A DNA stretch of 64,000 nucleotides from Mariprofundus sp. (GCA_021772835.1 JAJFLE010000057.1:3177-67176); one strand, 5' to 3'; positions 11,563 to 63,122 are shown, counted from the first letter of the stretch. The notes: generated by a model from the letters alone, not told the origin. Numbers and translations: made by a program.

Positions 11563-12543
11563 TCACTCCTCCAGCGTTACCGGGGTGACAAACTCGGGTG
11601 GCTTCACGGCTAGTACTGAGCAATCAATGCTATTGAGTATCTCTTCGGCAGTATTACCCATGATGAACCCGGGTATGCCGGTGCGACCAACAGTTCCCAT
11701 AACGATAAGGTCTGCCTTAATTTTTTTAGCCTGTTTCGGGATGACTGCTCGTGCCCAGCCTTTCACTACATGTACCTCGGGTTTGAGGTAATCGACAGCA
11801 TTGTCTGACTGGCCACTGGCCATTTCATCCAGAAATGCAGCCATACTGTGCTCTTCGCTCTTCTTGACCTGCTTAATGTATGCTTTGATCTCATCCTCTG
11901 GTGTTCGCATGAAGTGGCCACGCATTGCGCTTTCCCCAATAGCATCCCAGGCATGCACAAGGTGCAGTTCAGCAAAATCAGAGAGCGCCAGTGAGCTGGC
12001 CATTTCAAACACCTGCCGGTTCAGCGCCTGTCTGGAATCAAGCTCATGCGACGGGTAAGCATCACCCACATCAACTGCTGCCAGAATACAGCGCCATGAT
12101 TTCTTCGCCTCTGGCTTGATCAGCCAGACCGGACACGGGCATTTGCGCAATAAATGCATATCGTTGCTACCAAAGAGCCTGTGCAACCACGTATGGCTAT
12201 CCGGCGTTTTAATGACCAGGTCATGGCCGTTGCGTAGCACCTCTCTGATGATTTGCAGAAAAGGTACGCCGTTCAATATTCGAGTTGAGATGTCGACATG
12301 GGCTCTAAAGGGATCAAGCAACGTATCCAGAGCCTGCTCATGCGCCTGCTTTACAGCGGCTTGCAAGTCAGCGGGTGACGGACCATCTTCTGGCAGCCTG
12401 ATTCGCCCTTCGATCTGCTTGCCAACGATGGCAACGGTCAGGTTGGCCTGATTACTCTCAGCCAAAGCCACTGCACGTTTAAGGGCTGGCTCGCATGCTG
12501 TGTCTATATCCACTACACATAATATGTTCTTGAATCGTTTCAT
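11563..12543 (-). CDS. tandem universal stress protein (2 x USP domains) embedded in the mrp operon
   Basis: Start moved to the ATG at 12543, with GGAGG 8 nt upstream and 1 nt after the mrpE TAG. The N-terminus is MKRFKNILCVVDIDT. A second USP repeat begins at WRCILAAVDVGD and ends with ADLIVMGTVGRTGIPGFIMGNTAEEILNSIDCSVLAVKP (ATP-binding G-2x-G-9x-G(S/T)-type motif). Confidence 0.85.
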   Translation of the reverse strand: MKRFKNILCVVDIDTACEPALKRAVALAESNQANLTVAIVGKQIEGRIRLPEDGPSPADLQAAVKQAHEQALDTLLDPFRAHVDISTRILNGVPFLQIIREVLRNGHDLVIKTPDSHTWLHRLFGSNDMHLLRKCPCPVWLIKPEAKKSWRCILAAVDVGDAYPSHELDSRQALNRQVFEMASSLALSDFAELHLVHAWDAIGESAMRGHFMRTPEDEIKAYIKQVKKSEEHSMAAFLDEMASGQSDNAVDYLKPEVHVVKGWARAVIPKQAKKIKADLIVMGTVGRTGIPGFIMGNTAEEILNSIDCSVLAVKPPEFVTPVTLEE

Positions 12544-26942: not shown

Positions 26943-28416
26943 GGTTTTCTCCCTCTTCGGGGTAGAGCACCCAGGTATCTTTACTGCCTCCGCCCTGCGA
27001 TGAATTGACCACCAGTTGCCCTTCGGCCAGCGCCACGCGAGTCAGCCCCCCGGGCAGCACGGAAATTCGCCCGTCAGATCCGCATACGGCGTAGGGGCGC
27101 AGATCGACATGGCGAGGTTGCAATACCTTGTGCCCATCTTTCTCCACCAGTGTCGGGTGGGTAGAAAGTTTCTGTATGGGCTGTGCAATGTAATGCTCAG
27201 GATTGTCGGCAATCAGCTGACGGAACGCAATGATCTGCTCCTTCGTGGCATGGCTGCCGACCAGCATGCCGTAACCGCCGGAGGCATCGGTGGGTTTGAC
27301 CACCAGTTCTTCAAGGTGGTCCAGTACATAGGCCAGCTCATCGGGCCTGCGGCACAGATAGGTCGGCACGATAGGTATGATCGGCTCTTCGTTCAGATAA
27401 TAGCGAATGATATCCGGTGTGTAGGCATAGGTTGCCTTGTCATCAGCCACACCTGTGCCCGGGGCATTGGCCAGCACCAGGTTGCCAGCGCGATAGGCGT
27501 GCATGATACCAGTCACGCCGAGCATCGAATCGGCGCGGAAGGTCAACGGGTCGAGGTACTCATCGTCGATGCGGCGGTAGAGCACATCCACGCGCACCAG
27601 CCCTTCGGTGGTTTGCATATACAATATGTCATTATCAACCAGCAGGTCGCGACCCTCAACCAGTTCGGCTCCCATCTGATTGGCAAGAAACGCGTGCTCG
27701 AAATAGGCCGAGTTATAGGTGCCTGGAGTCAGTACTGCAATGTTGGGATTCTCGACTCTGGCCAGTGATGACAGGGCGGCAAAAAGCATTTGAGGATAAT
27801 GATCAACGGCACGAATGCGATGTTGCTGCAAGAGATCGGGCATCACACGGCCCATAACCCAACGGTTTTCCACCACATAGGAGACGCCGGATGGTGAACG
27901 AAGATTATCCTCGAGAACGAGCAGTTCGCCATTGCCATCGCGAATCAGGTCAATGCCGCTGATATGAGCGTAAACACCACCGGGAACATCCACATGCATC
28001 ATTTCACGACAAAAGTAGGGTGAATTGACAACCAGGTCTGTGGGGATGATCTGCTCCTTGAGTATGTTCTGTTCATGATAAATATCATGCAGAAACATGT
28101 TCATGGCTGTAAGTCGCTGTTTGATGCCGGCCTCCACCTTATCCCACTCGCTGGCAGTGATCAGACGTGGCATGAGATCGAACGGAAAGATCTTTTCTGT
28201 GCCACGGGCATCGGAATAAACCGTGAAGGTTACGCCCTGATTGAGCAATGACAGGTCTGCTTCACGCTGCAGGTCGGTCATGTCCTCACCATTACGTCGC
28301 CTTAACCAAGCATAGAGTTTGCGGTAGTGAGGGCGGGGCTTGCCGGACTCATCCAGCATTTCATCAAAGAAAGATTGTGCGTCGTAAGATGGCCAGAGGG
28401 ATGTGTTGGATTCCAT
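26935..28416 (-). CDS. circularly permuted type-2 ATP-grasp protein
   Basis: 493 aa. Carries ...PRPHYRKLYAWL...READLSLLNQGVTFTVYSDARGTEKIFPFDLMPRLI..., characteristic of the CP_ATPgrasp_2 family. It is the first gene of the triad. Confidence 0.85.
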   Translation of the reverse strand: MESNTSLWPSYDAQSFFDEMLDESGKPRPHYRKLYAWLRRRNGEDMTDLQREADLSLLNQGVTFTVYSDARGTEKIFPFDLMPRLITASEWDKVEAGIKQRLTAMNMFLHDIYHEQNILKEQIIPTDLVVNSPYFCREMMHVDVPGGVYAHISGIDLIRDGNGELLVLEDNLRSPSGVSYVVENRWVMGRVMPDLLQQHRIRAVDHYPQMLFAALSSLARVENPNIAVLTPGTYNSAYFEHAFLANQMGAELVEGRDLLVDNDILYMQTTEGLVRVDVLYRRIDDEYLDPLTFRADSMLGVTGIMHAYRAGNLVLANAPGTGVADDKATYAYTPDIIRYYLNEEPIIPIVPTYLCRRPDELAYVLDHLEELVVKPTDASGGYGMLVGSHATKEQIIAFRQLIADNPEHYIAQPIQKLSTHPTLVEKDGHKVLQPRHVDLRPYAVCGSDGRISVLPGGLTRVALAEGQLVVNSSQGGGSKDTWVLYPEEGENHA

Positions 28417-28672
28417 GACTCATATGCTTGGCGGCAAGCCTACGTCTGTCAATAAACATGATTATTATGGGTAAACATGAACAAAGCGTTCGCGCATGGG
28501 TTTTGAACGCGCAGCCTCAGGCTGTCGGAGCCGGGGGTAACCTGTTGAGCGGACTGATTACAGTTAAGGCTGTCGATGGTTGCGGCAAAACGCTCAGCTC
28601 AAGCTTTTCGCGACGACTTCGCCACGCCTCCCGCTCCAACTACGGGGGATTTTGTCTCGTTCAGGAGTAATT

Positions 28673-28994
28673 TGATTCGGGTCATCCATGACCCTCACCC
28701 TCCGGGCGACTTTTAGTCGTCCAATTTGGCTTCCTGCAAGATTGTGATTCGGGTCATCCGTGGCCCTCACCCTGTGGGCGAGCTGAAACTCGTCCCATTC
28801 GGCTATCCTGCCGAATGGTGATTCAACTCATCCGTGGCCCTCACCCTGTGGGCGAGCTGAAACTCGTCCCATTTGGCTATCCTGCCGAATGGTGATTCGA
28901 ATCATCCGTGGCCCTCACCCTGTGGGCGAGCTGAAACTCGTCCCATTCGGCTATCCTGCCGAATGGTGATTCAAATCATCCGTGGCCCCCAAGC
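28673..28994 (+). repeat. tandem array of a 74-bp structured unit (4 full units + a 5' partial fifth unit)
   Basis: Units start at 28673 (72 bp, diverged), 28745, 28819, 28893 and 28967 (partial). The consensus is TGATTCNNNTCATCCGTGGCCCTCACCCTGTGGGCGAGCTGAAACTCGTCCCATTCGGCTATCCTGCCGAATGG. The 74-bp period is not divisible by 3. Confidence 0.95.
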
Positions 28995-29334
28995 TTTTAT
29001 TGTAATAGAACAATACGGCGGAATGGTGATTTTCGGCCTCTTTGAGTCAGTCATGACCATCGCAGTCCTAAATGGCTACATTAGTCACATGGTCATCTTA
29101 GCTTACTATAAACAGCCCGGTCTACTTTTGGTTGCCATTATATAGACAATAAAAAATCGACTATAGAATCAAACCGATTGAAGTTCGCCCAGTATGTAAG
29201 AGGTGATCTTTTTCAGTTTACCTTCGTTTATGTTATTAAGATCAATTTTCAAATTCCTGTCGTAGGCATTTTGAATGATTATCTTAATGGCATCATTTGC
29301 TGCGCTATCCTCGTCATTTATACATCTGTAGTGG

Positions 29335-29707
<373 letters not shown>

Positions 29708-29711
<4 letters not shown>

Positions 29712-30034
29712 AGTGTTTCACTCCTTTGCTGAATGCGTTTTCGTTCCTTGGTGAACCGCCACCAGGAAAGGATTTCACCATGTTCCATAAAATGAATGGC
29801 AGCCATGAATACATCAATGATGCAGGGGTCAACTGCTTGGCCTTTCATCAGGCAAAGCTCTGCATGCAACTCAAATGGATCTTTCCCGATCAATTGGATG
29901 GGATGCTTTATGCCGATGGATTGAAGCTTCATTGCAATTGCCTTGCCAATATTCGGCAGCGCTTCCAGTTGAGCTACTGTATTCCGATCAGAAGATTTCA
30001 AGGTCAACACCTTCCGGCTTAACATGACTTCCAA
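29708..30034 (-). CDS. helix-hairpin-helix protein (mitomycin-resistance McrB / TfoX-C-like family)
   Basis: Carries LEALPNIGKAIAMKLQSIGIKHPIQLIGKDPFELHAELC...DPCIIDVFMAAIHFMEHGEILSWWRFTKERK. Confidence 0.65.
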
Positions 30035-30053
30035 TTCCGATAGTCATCCACGA

Positions 30054-30731
30054 CTATGGTTTGAATGCGCTCGCCAACCGGTTGAATTGAATTAACTCAG
30101 ATATTTCATCGGCAAATTTTTCAGAACTTAATTTAGCCAGCAATGCAAAGGCCGCCTGATAGCTGATCGGGCCACCGTTGGAAGTAATGATGCCATCGTC
30201 AATCACGATGTTGGTATCATACTGAACATTTATGTTGGGATACGCCTTGGCTAAACCTTTTTCACCACCTGCCCAAGTCGTGGCGCGTTTGCCATCGAGC
30301 ACACCTGCTTTACCCAGTAGGAATGCCCCCGAACAGTTACTGGCCATCCATGATGCCAATTTTTGTTGTGTTTGGATAAACAGGATTAATTTTTTATTAT
30401 CCAGCAAAGCATCCATCTCATAAGCGCTGGGCACAATCAACACATCCAGCTTGATGTCATCATAGATGCTTTTGTCGGCAATGATTTTCAGGCCTTCCTC
30501 TGAACGCACCGTCTTATTTCTGGTCGTCGAAATGATCACCACTTCATAAGATGAGAACCACGCCTTTTTCGTCGCAGCCCCAAACACCTCGACAGGTGCT
30601 GTCACATCACTGGTCAGAAAACCGTCGAATACCAGAATGCCAATTTTAGAAGTCGCAGCCTGAGTCGAACTAGAAAATAGTATCACCAGACAAAACAGAC
30701 TGGAAAATATAGATCGTTTCGCTCTGATCAT
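30054..30731 (-). CDS. DJ-1/PfpI-family protein with signal peptide
   Basis: Signal peptide MIRAKRSIFSSLFCLVILFSSSTQA, then IGILVFDGF and the nucleophile-elbow motif ASNCSGAFLLGKAGVLDGKRATTW. Confidence 0.8.
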   Translation of the reverse strand: MIRAKRSIFSSLFCLVILFSSSTQAATSKIGILVFDGFLTSDVTAPVEVFGAATKKAWFSSYEVVIISTTRNKTVRSEEGLKIIADKSIYDDIKLDVLIVPSAYEMDALLDNKKLILFIQTQQKLASWMASNCSGAFLLGKAGVLDGKRATTWAGGEKGLAKAYPNINVQYDTNIVIDDGIITSNGGPISYQAAFALLAKLSSEKFADEISELIQFNRLASAFKP

Positions 30732-30961
30732 ATGCGCTCCTTTTTTAATCTAGTTTCTGCAAGTCATTGTGCGTGCAGTTTGCCTGATATTTTCAAGCCG
30801 TCACGTATATTTAAACCCATCAACCCCGGCCAGTTTCATTTATTCGTTCAAGTCCTACATGGCTCCCCATTTCGGACAAATCCGGGCACCATTGGAATGA
30901 GGTTATTTTTATCGGCGAATGCAAGACCATTTCCAGCCAAAAGAAAGTTTTTCCTACCCCT

Positions 30962-31420
30962 TCAACTAATTTCTTTTTCCATATATGAATGTTGATAAGT
31001 TGCATGTTTATATTCACCAAACGGCTCACACAAATTAAATCCATTCTTTAGATAAAGGTGATAAGCATTCTCAAATTGATCACTTGTTTCGAGCTTTAGG
31101 GATGCCTTCCGCCTGTGTGCAGCCACTCGTTCAAGCTCATTTAACAAAAGGACTGCTAGACCTCTTCCACGATATTCTTCTAGAACGAACATTCGTGTTA
31201 TTTCTGCATAATCATCAATAAATTTTAATCCGGCCATTCCACACAGCGTTCCATTGCAGAGTATTCCAAGCAATATTGAGCTAACCCTCTCCAGTTCATC
31301 TGGTTGGGTTAAGTGACACTCTTCTGGAAGGCAATGTGTCATGTTGTGTGCATCAAGAAGCTTAAACAGCTCCTTCACCTCAATATTTGTTGGAGAAATT
31401 TGTGTAATTTCAATTTTCAT
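30962..31420 (-). CDS. GNAT-family N-acetyltransferase
   Basis: Acetyl-CoA-binding motif VLEEYRGRGLAVLLLNELERVA. 152 aa. Confidence 0.8.
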   Translation of the reverse strand: MKIEITQISPTNIEVKELFKLLDAHNMTHCLPEECHLTQPDELERVSSILLGILCNGTLCGMAGLKFIDDYAEITRMFVLEEYRGRGLAVLLLNELERVAAHRRKASLKLETSDQFENAYHLYLKNGFNLCEPFGEYKHATYQHSYMEKEIS

Positions 31421-31516
31421 ATCTTTGTGAATCGTAGACAGATTTCACTCCAATGTTAAATATCCGCTTTTTGGAAACGAACACGTTGCTAGATTCGAGT
31501 TATAAATAGGCATGGT

Positions 31517-31792
31517 TCACTGCTTTTGATTTATTTCATGGATCAATGCATTGAGCTGAAGTTGCTTTTCCGCATCAATGCATCCAAAGAGCTTTGCATC
31601 AATGCTCTCAACCGCATGAATCACGCACGGAATCATTTTCTGGCCAGACTCGGTTAGTGAAACAGATACCGAGCGTGTGTCATGGTTGCTTTTGATACGG
31701 TTTACCAATTCAAGCGCATCCGGTTCCACAAGCATGGCTTGCAACGATTGCATCTTATCCATGCGCGAATCCCTGCCATGCACCCACCGCAT
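31517..31792 (-). pseudogene. MarR-family regulator, probable C-terminal remnant
   Basis: Only the wing and dimerisation part is recognisable (LELVNRIKSNHDTRSVSVSLTESGQKMI). The expected N-terminal ~50-60 aa are missing, and that space is occupied in another frame by the upstream membrane-protein gene. Confidence 0.5.
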
Positions 31793-32228
31793 AGCAAGCG
31801 CCGATGAAAAGGCAGAGCACCGAGCTGATTACCATAAACAACATCTTCTCTTTGAGCTCAAGTGCATATGGATACTTCAGGAAGAGCACAGCCGGAATTG
31901 CCAGCAGTCCCCGCAACAAAAACACCACTGAAATCAGTGCAAGCGACTCCCTTAATAAGGGCAATCGGGGAAGCATCCCCGCAGCCGAGAATCCATACAA
32001 TGCCCAAACTCCTAATGCAGAAGCAATCACTCCGGTCACAATGGCCGGGTGGCGGGAGCCTTTTTCCGCAAGCTGAGCCATGCGTTCGCCTGCGCCGAAG
32101 AGGCGATACCAATCGGCTCCACCGAAGATGATGGCAATGTGCAAGGCCGCGGCGATCAAGCTTAGTAGACCGGCTGTCATCAAAAAAATATTGTACCGGT
32201 GTCCGGCAACCTCAATCAAATATTCCAT
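31755..32228 (-). CDS. small integral membrane protein (4 predicted TM), unknown function
   Basis: Hydrophobic segments LMTAGLLSLIAAALHIAIIF, AIVTGVIASALGVWALYGF, LALISVVFLLRGLLAIPAVLF and LFMVISSVLCLFIGACYAV. Confidence 0.55.
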   Translation of the reverse strand: MEYLIEVAGHRYNIFLMTAGLLSLIAAALHIAIIFGGADWYRLFGAGERMAQLAEKGSRHPAIVTGVIASALGVWALYGFSAAGMLPRLPLLRESLALISVVFLLRGLLAIPAVLFLKYPYALELKEKMLFMVISSVLCLFIGACYAVGAWQGFAHG

Positions 32229-34884: not shown

Positions 34885-35178
34885 TTAGTGATTACTCCTG
34901 TATTCACGGATAATTTCTACAACCTGAATGTGATATGACCTGTACCATTTTGATTTGCCAAACTCTTGCGCAGCCAGATGTTCAACATCCTGCTTCCATC
35001 GCCGTATCTGCTCCTGACTCTGCCAATATGAAATAGCAATTTCATTCGCGCCTTCAATAGCAGACGTAAATTCGGTACAGCCATATTTTTCCATTGCCAG
35101 CTTTCTCATTCGCGCCGCCATCTCCACATAAGCTTCATCAAGCCTGTTAACTTCGGCTCTGAATATAACTGCATACAT
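34885..35178 (-). CDS. antibiotic-biosynthesis-monooxygenase (ABM) domain protein
   Basis: 97 aa. MYAVIFRAEV...GCTEFTSAIEGANEIAISYWQSQEQIRRWKQDVEHLAAQEFGK is an ABM ferredoxin-like fold pattern. Confidence 0.7.
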   Translation of the reverse strand: MYAVIFRAEVNRLDEAYVEMAARMRKLAMEKYGCTEFTSAIEGANEIAISYWQSQEQIRRWKQDVEHLAAQEFGKSKWYRSYHIQVVEIIREYRSNH

Positions 35179-35187
35179 TAGTTACTT

Positions 35188-35250
35188 CCCTTCACCCTGC
35201 GGGCGAGCTGAAACTCGTTCATCAACGCCCAAGCGCCCTGCAAGGATGGC
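35188..35250 (+). repeat. 3' part of a 74-bp repeat unit (direct orientation), right flank of the island
   Basis: CCCTTCACCCTGCGGGCGAGCTGAAACTCGTTC closely matches the unit core CCCTCACCCTGTGGGCGAGCTGAAACTCGTCC. It continues with ...CCCTGCAAGGATGG, which resembles unit 1 (TTCCTGCAAGATTG). Confidence 0.8.
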
Positions 35251-35323
35251 ATACACGGATGTGCGTGATGAATTCCTCAACCCTGAGAAATAGTGGCATA
35301 TCATTTGCTCGGGATGATCACTT

Positions 35324-38430: not shown

Positions 38431-41349
38431 TTAACCAAGCATATGACGCAAAAATTGGCCGAGCCGCTCAAACGAAAAAGGTTTTGTTAAAATTTTACAG
38501 TTCACGAAATCAGCTTTGCCGGAAGTCACCCGTTCCTTGTCGTAACCGGTCGCAAGTATGATAGGAATCTCAGCATCAAGTTTACGAATTTCTTCCGCCA
38601 ACTCTATTCCTCCCATTTTAGGCATGACTACATCTGAAAAAATAATCGCGATTTCACTTTGATGGGCGAGATATTTTGCCAGTGCCTCTTCACCATCGCC
38701 TGCCTCGATAACCTTATAATCAAAACCCTCCAATACCTCAGCAGTCGTCATGCGCAGATTTTCATCATCATCAACCAGTAAAACAACCTGTTGATCACCC
38801 CCGATCAACGCCGATTCGGCATCAGCTTGTGGCAAAACCGGGGTGGACTTGGATAGAGGAATATATATAAAAAAAGTTGTACCTTCGCCCGGTTCGCTCT
38901 TCACCTCCAGCACACCACCAAGCCGCTGTATTGAGCCGAACACCATAGCTAACCCCAGCCCGGTACCCTTGCCTGTCTCCTTGGTGGTGAAGAAAGGATC
39001 AAAAATAACATCTAAATGCTGGCTCTTGATGCCGCATCCGTTGTCTTTCAATGAAATCATAGCCATCTGGCGATCTACTATTTCGGGGTGCCTGTTCATG
39101 AAGGTTTCGTCTGCCTTATATAGCTTCAGGTGCCATTCGATAGATGGTTTCGGAACACCCTCAAGCGCATCTCTGGCATTATTTGACAGGTTGATAATCA
39201 CCTGTTTCAGCTGGGTGGCATCGGCATCGACATTTAAAATATCATCACACAGGTGTAACTGGTGATTGATATTTTCAGGAGTCGTGCTTCTGGCCAGCCT
39301 AAACCCTTCGCCAAGTAGGTTATTCAGATTGATCGTTTTGACCTCAACAATATCTTTTTTGGCAAAGGCCAGCATCTGCCTGACAACTTCAGCAGCATCT
39401 CCTGAGATCTCATCAATAAGCTTCAGTTTGTTGGTGATAAGCTGCTTGTCATCCAGATTTTTCATAGCGATATAGAGGTTGCCCTGTATCGCAGCCAGCA
39501 TATTGTTGAAATCATGCGCAATTCCGCCGACCAGCGTACCCACAGCCTCCATCTTCTGTGCCTGCAACAGCTGATGCTCCATTCTTTTCAGCTCGGTGAT
39601 ATCCTTCATGATTGAGACATAATGCGTGGGCTTTTTATCCTCATTGAATACAGGCGCAATAGAAATCATGGAGGGGAAAAAACTACCATCCTTACGGCGA
39701 TCAATCAGCGTCCCCTGCCACCGCTTGCCTGCGGCAATGGTTTGCCATAGCTCCCGGTAAGTGGCCGGATCCTGAGCTCCACTTTTCAGCATCGAGGTGT
39801 TTTGGCCAATAGCCTCTGCATAGCTATAACCCGTAATTTCGGTAAAAGCGGGATTCACGTATTCAATGATCGCCTCGGGAGAGGCGATCATGACGGCTTC
39901 CCCGGCTTGCTCTAGCGCCTGTGAAAGCTTAGACAGCTCCTTCTGTTGGGATGCTATCTCCTCTTCGGCCCGTTTCCTCTCACTGATACCCCTGGCAATG
40001 CCCAGCACCCCGATAAGGTTATCGTTTTCATCGTACATAGGCGTCTTGATCGTTTCGAACAGGCCGGAATAACCGCCAACAGCAAAGCTTAACTCCTCCT
40101 CGTTGATTCGGCTCACTTTTGCCTCGATAGCCGCCAAATCATTATGGCGGAAAAAATCGGCCAGTTCACTGCTGACAAAATCGTAGTCGGTTTTACCCAC
40201 GATCTCGGCTTCGGGATGGCCATACAGCTTTTCAAACATCGGATTACAGCTCAGGTAAACCCCATTGGCATCCTTTAACCAGACAAGGTCGGGAATGGTG
40301 CTGACCAGGGTTTTGAGCTGCCCTCGCTCCAACACCAGCTTATTCTGACTCACAATAAACTCAGCTTGCAGCGCATACAACTGCTCCCGCTCCTTCATTA
40401 AGGCGCCCTGCCTGAACATGGCCAGCACCAGCACTATTACCGCCCCCATATCTGCGATGACCTGCACGATATGCGGCAGATCCAACGTATGAGATAGAAC
40501 AACCGCTGCTGCTGCGACCACCACAGTCATCATAGGTAGCATTCGTAATGCAGCTTCGCAGCGCAGATCCCACTCCCGATCTGTATTGATCTCAATCTTC
40601 CAGCCCGTCAGGGCAAACGCGATCAACAGTACGGCAACAGAAAAGGAGGGATTAAACCAGCTGCCATCAATGGTAACGCCGTCGAGCGCCAGAAAATTCC
40701 AGTGCATCCAGCTTAGCCCCGTCGCTATCAGACCGCCAACAAACAACAGTAAACTGCCGTTCACACGCAAACGCAGGGATGGGATCATGCTCAGGGCAGT
40801 AATTGCCGCGGCAAGCAACGTAGTTGGGTAAGCAATCAAGACCAGCATCGGCAACCACGATGTATCGCCACGCTTAGGTAAATAGAGTGCAAGCACCAGA
40901 GTCAGCAACGCAACGGTGAGGATAGTTGCATCCAGCCAGGCCATTTTCCTCTGTGATGGAGTGGTGTATCTGCTGATCTCCTTTAGCAAGCCTATGATAA
41001 CACACAGACCCAGCCAGAGATAAAAGAGATCTGACGGGGCAGGGAACCCTGTATAGGCAAGTGCCACCTGAACATCCCATAGAATTTGCCCCACTGCGTA
41101 GCCAGTTAATCCAAGCGCTATCCAGAATAGCCCTTTGCGATCAGCAACTGATGCAGATCTAAAAACCAACCAGGCAACAATGGCTGCCGTAGAGGTACTG
41201 GTAGTCCAGTGTAGATTGTCGAAAATGCGAATCCAGGAAGTATCCTGTGCCAAGCGAATGCCAATAGCACCGGTCAGCGTGCCGATAATACCTGCAAGCA
41301 TAACGGCATTGATCATGCGGAACTTACTTAAAGCGACGGCTCCCTGCAC
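38431..41349 (-). CDS. hybrid sensor histidine kinase (multi-TM sensor, 2 PAS, HisKA-HATPase, receiver)
   Basis: 972 aa. About 300 aa of polytopic N-terminus, then PAS/PAC repeats (...ARGISERKRAEEE..., ...MKDITELKRMEHQL), the H-box GGIAHDFNNML, G-boxes DNGCGI/GTGLGLA, and a receiver (LLVDDDE...FSDVVMPKMGG). Confidence 0.9.
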   Translation of the reverse strand: MQGAVALSKFRMINAVMLAGIIGTLTGAIGIRLAQDTSWIRIFDNLHWTTSTSTAAIVAWLVFRSASVADRKGLFWIALGLTGYAVGQILWDVQVALAYTGFPAPSDLFYLWLGLCVIIGLLKEISRYTTPSQRKMAWLDATILTVALLTLVLALYLPKRGDTSWLPMLVLIAYPTTLLAAAITALSMIPSLRLRVNGSLLLFVGGLIATGLSWMHWNFLALDGVTIDGSWFNPSFSVAVLLIAFALTGWKIEINTDREWDLRCEAALRMLPMMTVVVAAAAVVLSHTLDLPHIVQVIADMGAVIVLVLAMFRQGALMKEREQLYALQAEFIVSQNKLVLERGQLKTLVSTIPDLVWLKDANGVYLSCNPMFEKLYGHPEAEIVGKTDYDFVSSELADFFRHNDLAAIEAKVSRINEEELSFAVGGYSGLFETIKTPMYDENDNLIGVLGIARGISERKRAEEEIASQQKELSKLSQALEQAGEAVMIASPEAIIEYVNPAFTEITGYSYAEAIGQNTSMLKSGAQDPATYRELWQTIAAGKRWQGTLIDRRKDGSFFPSMISIAPVFNEDKKPTHYVSIMKDITELKRMEHQLLQAQKMEAVGTLVGGIAHDFNNMLAAIQGNLYIAMKNLDDKQLITNKLKLIDEISGDAAEVVRQMLAFAKKDIVEVKTINLNNLLGEGFRLARSTTPENINHQLHLCDDILNVDADATQLKQVIINLSNNARDALEGVPKPSIEWHLKLYKADETFMNRHPEIVDRQMAMISLKDNGCGIKSQHLDVIFDPFFTTKETGKGTGLGLAMVFGSIQRLGGVLEVKSEPGEGTTFFIYIPLSKSTPVLPQADAESALIGGDQQVVLLVDDDENLRMTTAEVLEGFDYKVIEAGDGEEALAKYLAHQSEIAIIFSDVVMPKMGGIELAEEIRKLDAEIPIILATGYDKERVTSGKADFVNCKILTKPFSFERLGQFLRHMLG

Positions 41350-62863: not shown

Positions 62864-62910
62864 GGAGATGCTGATTTATTGCCATCCTGGCAATAATCAG
62901 CTCGCAAAGA

Positions 62911-62996
62911 CACCATTCCACAGGATAGTGGAATGGGACAGCGAAGGGTGCCACGTAGTGGTGTGAGGCATGGATGCCGAGCATCAAAAGCGTGGT
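62911..62996 (-). repeat. diverged, inverted solitary copy of the 74-bp repeat family
   Basis: The reverse complement reads TGATGCTCGGCATCCATGCCTCACACC...GTCCCATTCCACTATCCTGTGGAATGGTG. It shares the TGAT..CATCC.TG.CC.TCAC head and the hairpin GTCCCATTC-NNN-TATCCT-NNN-GAATGGTG with the array units. Confidence 0.6.
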
Positions 62997-63122
62997 TTAC
63001 CTTTGCTTACAAATCAGGCTCTTACATGCCTGATTTGGCAGGCCGTCCATGGCCTGCACGGAAGCGCTGAATAAATCAGCGCTTCCCTAACACACGGTAT
63101 GATATGAAGATGGGGGGAACAC

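Follow-up and report, generated by a model that had tools for sequence, protein, structure and literature searches.

Extragenic hairpins of the REP/BIME (REPIN) type are single hairpins (imperfect palindromes) of 20-40 nt that carry a conserved terminal tetranucleotide tag, GTAG or CGTC, and usually occur as inverted pairs, in hundreds of copies per genome. They are strand-asymmetric, tolerate G.T pairs and have palindromic stems that differ between lineages; a Y1 enzyme acting in trans (RAYT), which recognises the hairpin and its flank, is believed to mobilise them in single-stranded form. MIRU/VNTR loci of mycobacteria are direct tandem repeats without spacers, located in intergenic DNA, whose copy number varies between strains and which can overlap stop codons; they show no marked dyad symmetry and follow the orientation of operons. 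BrickBuilt of P. gingivalis, a MITE containing a minisatellite (PMC4596501), has leader and tail subunits with inverted-repeat ends. The BOX, RUP and SPRITE elements of S. pneumoniae are small, modular intergenic repeats with secondary structure and a variable tandem module (boxA-boxB(n)-boxC); they are patchily distributed among close relatives, can modify the ends of genes and are co-transcribed with their neighbours (PMC3049150). Repetition of short hairpins with GGA in the loop is characteristic of the sponge RNAs CsrB, CsrC, RsmX, RsmY and RsmZ.

Here we describe a tandem array of a 74-nt unit in the window (the whole 64-kb stretch of DNA that was analysed), and we lean toward regarding it as a tandemly amplified member of a lineage-restricted, modular, hairpin-rich family of interspersed repeats in the iron-oxidising genus Mariprofundus (Zetaproteobacteria). 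The host of the window belongs to this genus: ZnuB shares 92% identity with its M. aestuarium counterpart, and the segment from 51 to 64 kb is syntenic with the M. aestuarium genome. Small structured repeats of the interspersed kind occur in many bacteria; Rfam and a literature search for Mariprofundus yielded no prior description of a structured interspersed repeat in Zetaproteobacteria.

The array and its units

The array is by far the strongest tandem repeat that TRF finds in the window. It is reported as a single array at 28682-28988, with a period of 74, 4.2 copies, 89% matches, no indels and a score of 460. Read unit by unit, it extends over 28673-29031 and consists of four full units, a partial fifth and one remnant (Table 1). 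The unit starts that the initial annotation had proposed (28673, 28745, 28819, 28893 and 28967) were recovered by reading the sequence and by profile and covariance-model searches. Units 2-4 are closely similar, with 70-72 identities over 74 positions in pairwise comparison, and unit 1, at 72 nt, shares 56-58 of 74 positions with them. Hairpin B of unit 1 contains one G.A mismatch and one T.G pair. The GAA triplet of unit 4 gives rise to a perfect 12-nt palindrome, TGATTCGAATCA, at the unit junction. Nine TGAT-N4-ATCA sites occur in the window; two of these are unit junctions (28893 and 28967), and most of the others are intragenic.

Table 1. Units, fragments and dispersed copies of the repeat in the window
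Feature	Position	Strand	Score	Composition and remarks
Unit 1, diverged, 72 nt	28673..28744	+	80.2 bits (covariance model)	C GGGTCA-TCCA-TGACCC; A GGGCGAC-TTTTA-GTCGTCC; B CAATTTGGC-TTCCT-GCAAGATTG
Unit 2, reference unit	28745..28818	+	102 bits (covariance model)	TGATTC head; C 28751-28766; C-rich linker TCACCCTGT; A 28776-28795; B 28795-28818, loop TATCCT
Unit 3	28819..28892	+	89.8 bits	Triplet AAC, which breaks hairpin C on the plus strand
Unit 4	28893..28966	+	95.9 bits	Triplet GAA
Unit 5, head	28967..28992	+		Triplet AAA
Remnant	29018..29031	+	23 (0/200 shuffles reach this score)	Unit tail GCGGAATGG, then next head TGATT
Partial copy, linker and hairpin A	35189..35220	+	E 1.3e-6 (profile); 23.4 bits (covariance model)	CCCTTCACCCTGC-GGGCGAG-CTGAAA-CTCGTTC
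Tentative head-like module	62872..62903	+ (opposite orientation to solo unit)	Weak; 20.4 bits including the neighbouring B hairpin	TGATTTAT-TGCCA-TCC-TGGCA-ATAATCA
Solo unit, full-length, diverged, in the znuB-to-RDD spacer	62913..62986	-	69.6 bits (covariance model)

At the right edge of the array, 25 nt of AT-rich DNA stand in place of the core of unit 5. Because a unit tail and the next head follow at 29018-29031, the array was formerly longer in the rightward direction, and unit 5 has lost its core. An AT-rich palindrome, TATTGT-AATAGA-ACAATA (28998-29015), lies inside the stretch that replaces this core. On the left flank, a candidate decayed unit was not significant. The 20-mer of hairpin A had no match in 100 shuffles and is thus not expected from chance.

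The array had initially been set apart from both CRISPR and coding repeats, and we agree on both counts: the units abut head to tail without spacers, the TRF period being equal to the unit length of 74, which is not a multiple of 3, and the array contains only short overlapping ORFs. A mini-ORF on the minus strand of units 2-4 (AGGA-N7-ATG, 14 codons, TGA) is not kept in unit 1 or in contig L055, a metagenome contig considered below, and we regard it as a coincidence.

Directly to the right of the array lies a low-GC patch (29000-32000; 41-44% versus about 51%), which encodes an IS3-type integrase-core fragment (29335-29589, minus strand) together with Cdd1 "pathogenicity locus," DJ-1/PfpI and GNAT proteins. 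The patch is likely to be an acquired island of small size, bordered by the array.

Three hairpins in each unit

Two hairpins per unit had been recognised initially. Hairpins A (28776-28795) and B (28795-28818) are indeed present as described, but a third, hairpin C, had been overlooked. The unit begins with the head TGATTC, which is followed by hairpin C (GGGTCA-TCCG-TGGCCC, 28751-28766 in unit 2), the C-rich linker TCACCCTGT, hairpin A (GGGCGAG-CTGAAA-CTCGTCC) and hairpin B (CCATTCGGC-TATCCT-GCCGAATGG). The so-called variable triplet, which reads GGG, GGG, AAC, GAA and AAA, belongs to hairpin C, where it forms the outer part of the 5' arm. Hairpin A competes with an alternative helix, A' (CTCACCC-TGT-GGGCGAG), so that GGGCGAG can pair either downstream, in A, or upstream with CTCACCC, in A'; the non-Watson-Crick pair is a G.U on the plus strand in A and a G.U on the minus strand in A'.

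The individual substitutions on which the initial annotation had built its argument are all present in the sequence, namely the compensatory change from G:C to C:G in hairpin A of unit 1, the C-to-T change that produces a G.T pair in hairpin B of unit 3, and the constant G.T pair of hairpin A. The broader proposal that substitutions preserve pairing also stands. Over six distinct copies, 89.6% of cells are paired, as opposed to 79.7% in shuffles, none of 500 of which reached the observed value, and pairing falls to 32-45% when the partners are slid against each other. Helix B is the clearest case, with changes on both sides in six of eight pairs and 97.9% of cells paired in the same six copies. 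Five different B stems are found across copies (CCATTCGGC, CAATTTGGC, CCATTCCAC, CAAACCTAC and TCTCGC), and their partner arms match around a loop that is kept. Covariation in hairpin C is seen at one or two positions, and hairpin A draws its support from the one swap in unit 1. Hairpins B and C are same-strand hairpins whose stems vary freely without losing complementarity; hairpin A, for which the support is weaker, has likewise been preserved. In L055, B and C have the apex ATCCTG in common. In the window array this apex is found in B only, and C reads ATCCGTG.

Divergence between the array and L055 is unevenly distributed along the unit. The 5' 50 nt are about 94% identical, whereas the B stems differ at 10 of 18 positions, a pattern that would fit a sequence-specific function or a shuffling of modules better than it would fit plain neutral decay.

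Dispersed copies and their insertion sites

In the array, a discrete, non-coding module of 73-74 nt, which runs from TGATTC to the foot of hairpin B, has been amplified locally in tandem. The parts of the module are separable (the head with hairpin C, the C-rich linker with hairpin A, and hairpin B), and the module is found in fragments, singly, in pairs and in the array of 4-5 units. Its sites lie in intergenic DNA or overlap the ends of genes, and its presence is sporadic between close relatives. The window contains three loci of the family. At two loci the unit is missing from the orthologous sites of close relatives, at 85-95% protein identity.

One of these loci is the spacer between znuB and the RDD gene. 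In the solo unit found there, hairpin A has not been preserved; hairpin C reads GGCA-TCCA-TGCC, and hairpin B (CCATTCCAC-TATCCT-GTGGAATGG) differs from the array by two compensatory pairs. The spacer is 259 nt long in the window, and the extra DNA contains the solo unit; in four relatives, with ZnuB identities of 95, 93, 92 (M. aestuarium) and 91%, it measures 62, 68, 74 and 36 nt, respectively. Judged by these lengths, the solo unit (62913-62986) is apparently a lineage-specific insertion. The insertion is complex, and neither here nor elsewhere could a clean target-site duplication or empty-site junction be defined. The tentative head-like module beside the solo unit sits within a 14-bp hairpin that resembles the ancestral hairpin of the spacer with an insertion at its apex.

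Hairpins at 63031-63097 were considered as further family members and rejected, because they belong to the ancestral znuB-RDD spacer and their loops differ in relatives. The spacer holds an orthologous hairpin pair (63038-63087 in the window, 7790-7855 in the relative L066 and 10888-10950 in L068) whose stems covary (for example, GGAAGCGCTGA/TCAGCGCTTCC versus GGAAGCAGTG/CACTGCTTCC). This conserved pair has no relation to the repeat family and may be a terminator or regulatory structure. In the same region, some relatives have a PDDEXK_3-family gene between znuC and znuB (L064 326-724; L071 9529-9927) that is lacking in the window and in M. aestuarium; its presence in some genomes and absence from others is a further sign of local gene flux.

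The partial copy at 35189-35220 lies 10 nt from the start codon of an ABM-like gene on the minus strand (34885-35178), and the 3' arm of its hairpin A is the variant that is found in L055. A weak covariance-model match on the minus strand, at 35220-35271 (7 bits), may be a decayed, inverted head module beside this hairpin-A fragment. The adjoining plus-strand segment (35225-35323) contains mini-hairpins with GGA loops, CAAGGATGG and CAC-GGAT-GTG, and GGGATGA 8 nt before the ATG; it precedes a REC-domain gene on the plus strand (35324), after which comes a GGDEF/EAL gene.

Beyond the window, a metagenome scan returned two contigs with full units, L055 and L056, and in L055 two units stand in tandem with a period of 73. 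L055 is from another Mariprofundus population: its 256-aa flanking protein shares 84% identity with the M. aestuarium and M. micogutta proteins. Two other contigs, L057 and L059, have a single unit (91.4 bits), although the flanking protein is identical to that of L055/L056, where there are two. The difference between one unit and two could be a collapse of identical units by the assembler (ENA assemblies, k=141; the JGI assemblies give two). L055 also provides the second case of absence at an orthologous site. Its FlhB-like protein ends in ...EIFDKPTG, with KPTG and the stop codon read from hairpin B, whereas the FlhB-like protein of element-free relatives (85% identity) ends in ...EIFDSRSK followed by a stop. 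Comparison of these gene ends places the right boundary of the element exactly at the foot of hairpin B. A reduced form of the element is present in the relative L066 (ZnuB 93% identical), at 11788-11821, where TGATTC and 5 nt precede the 6-bp hairpin TCTCGC-TATCCT-GCGGGA; it lies between a LysR gene and the next gene and is co-directional with both. The array site itself could not be compared in this way, because relatives with 72-75% nucleotide identity do not share the gene order upstream of the ATP-grasp operon, which is therefore uninformative.

No further copies of the unit were found in about 100 kb of other Mariprofundus DNA, and blastn in distant mode gave no match in a plasmid collection. 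An exact 18-mer of hairpin A has 48 matches in species-representative genomes and one in a viral contig, all of which we attribute to chance; they are bare 18-mers in unrelated taxa, with no Mariprofundus record among the 48. The window also does not contain a REP-like swarm of hairpins with TCC/GGA loops, as 96 were observed window-wide against about 100 expected. Long-stem hairpins with this apex do not occur outside the family's loci, which makes it a small family. A perfect 11-bp hairpin, ATGATCGCCTC-TCCC-GAGGCGATCAT, was noted at 39866-39891 on the minus strand, inside the gene for a 972-aa sensor kinase.

Alternative readings and relation to known systems

The fold had initially been taken to be specific to the plus strand, and this did not hold: both strands fold equally, and the wobble evidence is split. 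The 351-nt region has a folding energy of -136.5 kcal/mol on each strand (z = -5.75 on plus and -5.23 on minus), and RNAalifold gives consensus structures of -21.07 on the plus strand (hairpins C, A and B) versus -23.96 kcal/mol on the minus strand (hairpin B, 9 bp, and helix A', 7 bp). About six wobble events give G.U pairs on plus only (A 34.49, A 33.50, B of unit 3, B of unit 1, B of L066 and C 10.19). Oppositely, the wobble of helix A' falls on the minus strand, and seven of the eight triplet changes are G to A, which break hairpin C on the plus strand and keep G.U pairs on the minus strand; these changes also create the junction palindrome TGATTCGAATCA at the DNA level. A consensus scan of 28200-29700 gave no promoter-like site in either orientation; the minus strand has no terminator-like site, and the only one in this interval is hairpin A of unit 1. 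Nor does orientation help, since the GGA-containing strand is sense to neighbouring genes at four loci and antisense at two, which is uninformative.

On the minus strand, the unit reads as two hairpins with GGA in the loop, in the contexts CAGGAU(A/G) or (C/U)CA-N-GGAUG. The loop of B is AGGAUA and that of C is ACGGAUG, AUGGAUG or CAGGAUG, in accord with what we take to be the CsrA/RsmA pattern (CAGGAUG in the CsrB repeat and ACGGAUG in the RsmE-hcnA site). The array might then be a CsrA/RsmA-binding RNA, either a sponge like CsrB/RsmZ or a long CsrA-responsive leader of the ATP-grasp operon, and solo units would tie their neighbouring genes to Csr control, an arrangement compatible with mobility. 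We consider this unlikely. GGA does occur 14 times on the minus strand of the array and not once on the plus strand in 320 nt, which is the maximum for the whole window (mean 4.4, sd 2.1), and it is invariant (TCC on plus) in all B and C loops of all copies while the stems covary. The minus consensus fold is the better of the two, the triplet changes are tolerated on that strand as G.U pairs, and the array has the same orientation as the ATP-grasp operon, from which no terminator separates it. With one GGA per 23 nt, the array comes close in density to known Csr sRNAs (counts from PMC11882849). However, hairpin C has a C.A mismatch on the minus strand in units 2-5, the scan that found no promoter or intrinsic terminator also found no GacA-type upstream site, and the models for CsrB, CsrC, RsmX, RsmY and RsmZ gave no match even at permissive settings (E<=10, over 28300-29300 and L057 2700-4300). 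The position of the element is not conserved between relatives, and at both L066 and 62872-62903 the genes on either side run antisense to the GGA strand. The csrA gene is present in at least the stalk-forming Mariprofundus (PMC8250860), but the pan-genome paper places it outside the stalk-less isolates, the closest named relative of the window being the dread-former M. aestuarium, and it was not found in about 0.2 Mb of Mariprofundus DNA examined. A combined possibility, which we rate as distinctly unlikely, is a mobile modular RNA element with minus-strand GGA hairpins, whose tandem copies upstream of the ATP-grasp operon would act as a CsrB-like sponge or a multi-site CsrA-responsive leader and whose solo copies would recruit genes to the Csr regulon. 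If true, this would be the first Csr antagonist in Zetaproteobacteria and the first instance of CsrA-binding sites spread and amplified by an interspersed repeat, and the GGA-loop reading would link the spread of a repeat element to global post-transcriptional control.

A structured RNA from the plus strand, be it a tandem small RNA family or a processed transcript, on the model of tandem sRNA clusters with C/U-rich loops that pair with ribosome-binding sites, seems quite improbable to us. The plus-only wobble events argue for it, as do the z score of the plus fold and the location of the unit 1 swap in hairpin A rather than A', and the UCC loops and the linker CCCUCACCCU are C/U-rich and would be complementary to Shine-Dalgarno-like sequences. 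But the folding energy is the same on both strands, hairpin C is broken on plus in units 3-5, and a plus-strand transcript would be antisense to the genes on both sides, at the array as well as at 62.9 kb; furthermore, the element occurs sporadically and not in synteny, it matches nothing in Rfam, and the consensus scan shows no promoter-like site. The array could also act at the DNA level, with phased junction sites (TGAT-N4-ATCA) bound by a dimeric regulator or nucleoid protein. The period of 74 bp corresponds to about 7.05 helical turns by arithmetic, the array precedes the ATP-grasp operon, at 255-575 bp from the ATG at 28416, TGAT-N4-ATCA resembles the core of FNR/CRP-type sites, and the changes from GGG to GAA and AAA convert a quasi-palindrome into a perfect site at 28893 and 28967. 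That the core is perfect at only two of five junctions, and that the same motif is over-represented window-wide (9 sites versus about 2 expected in Markov simulations), mostly inside genes, makes this reading highly improbable; the covariation of hairpin B, the conserved loops and the dispersed solo copies are moreover not explained by a binding array.

A modular interspersed repeat that has been amplified in tandem, with BOX, REP and MIRU elements as its nearest counterparts, is the explanation we prefer. The unit would be inserted or duplicated as a module, through the action of a trans-acting enzyme that recognises two same-strand hairpins or through recombination, and arrays would grow and shrink by slippage or unequal exchange. 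Such slippage or exchange would explain why the inner units are nearly identical and the edge units decayed. Any effect on the host could come from stable hairpins formed when the unit is co-transcribed with its neighbours, as has been proposed for BOX, REP and ERIC. Among the options offered by the initial annotation, a structured REP-like element therefore fits best, and a dedicated tandem sRNA gene does not fit, given that the copies are dispersed, are absent in relatives and have no promoter-like site. Several points speak against this explanation, among them the uneven divergence along the unit, the small size of the family and the lack of a clean target-site duplication. No transposase or recombinase able to move the element was found in the 64-kb window. 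The only nearby mobile-element gene is the IS3-type integrase-core fragment, about 340 nt away and without a link to the unit, and a Pfam scan of 30 window ORFs revealed no RAYT (Y1 transposase). As a family, the repeat is compact, with three hairpins, two of which share an apex, clear boundaries and unusually clean compensatory evolution. It is a good marker for strain typing in iron-mat metagenomes and a tractable system in which to ask why hairpins are kept, whether for movement as single-stranded DNA or for a function in RNA.

The unit had not been recognised initially as any named family, and Rfam gave no match at the gathering threshold in the window. A snoRNA sR18 match in unit 4 is noise (11.8 bits, E 9.1, gathering score 45), and ARAGORN found no tRNA. 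Outside the window, Rfam matches the cspA thermoregulator in L068 19603-20032 (M. aestuarium CP018799; 102 bits against a gathering score of 78), and a cold-shock gene lies downstream of this match. A tentative lead is the "Zeta-pan" RNA motif, which lies near ketopantoate-reductase genes, and the flanking gene of L055 bears the name ketopantoate-reductase; Rfam gave no match at the element, and the motif was not found in the literature search. An integron attC site is rejected, because the unit has no R''/R' boxes and there are no cassette ORFs and no integrase beyond the IS3-type fragment. A MITE would have inverted repeats at its ends, which the unit does not have in L055 or in the solo copy, and no duplication is evident at the L055 or znuB-RDD junction.

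Among systems that share particular features with the array, the Csr/Rsm sponges resemble its minus strand in their repeated short GGA-loop hairpins (CAGGAU, ACGGAUG) and in the density of these, and they differ in that the array has no Rfam Csr/Rsm match, promoter or terminator of its own and is dispersed, insertion-like and not syntenic. REP/BIME (REPIN) elements with RAYT resemble it as extragenic, strand-asymmetric hairpins with tolerated G.T pairs and stems that differ between lineages. Unlike them, the Mariprofundus unit is a 74-nt, three-hairpin element in direct tandem, with no RAYT in view and few copies (three loci in 64 kb, all array units direct and one possible inverted head module at 62872-62903); window copies lack a GTAG/CGTC tag, and a GTAG in L055 lies within the variable stem of hairpin B. 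With MIRU/VNTR and BrickBuilt it shares spacerless direct tandem repetition of a 23-100 bp unit at several intergenic loci (BrickBuilt PMC4596501), strain differences in copy number and an overlap of units with an adjoining gene's stop codon, but MIRU lack marked dyad symmetry, and BrickBuilt has the leader and tail subunits with inverted-repeat ends, whereas the Mariprofundus unit is made of covarying hairpins without terminal inverted repeats. BOX has no sequence similarity to the unit, belongs to a host of another phylum and is far more numerous than the copies visible here; in addition, it repeats an inner module between fixed ends, whereas here the whole three-hairpin unit is repeated. 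Nevertheless, as in BOX, RUP and SPRITE, for which a parasitic nature has been argued from a comparable patchy distribution (PMC3049150), we find a small, modular and structured intergenic repeat that occurs as lone modules and in one, two or 4-5 copies, modifies the end of a gene and is absent at orthologous sites in close relatives.
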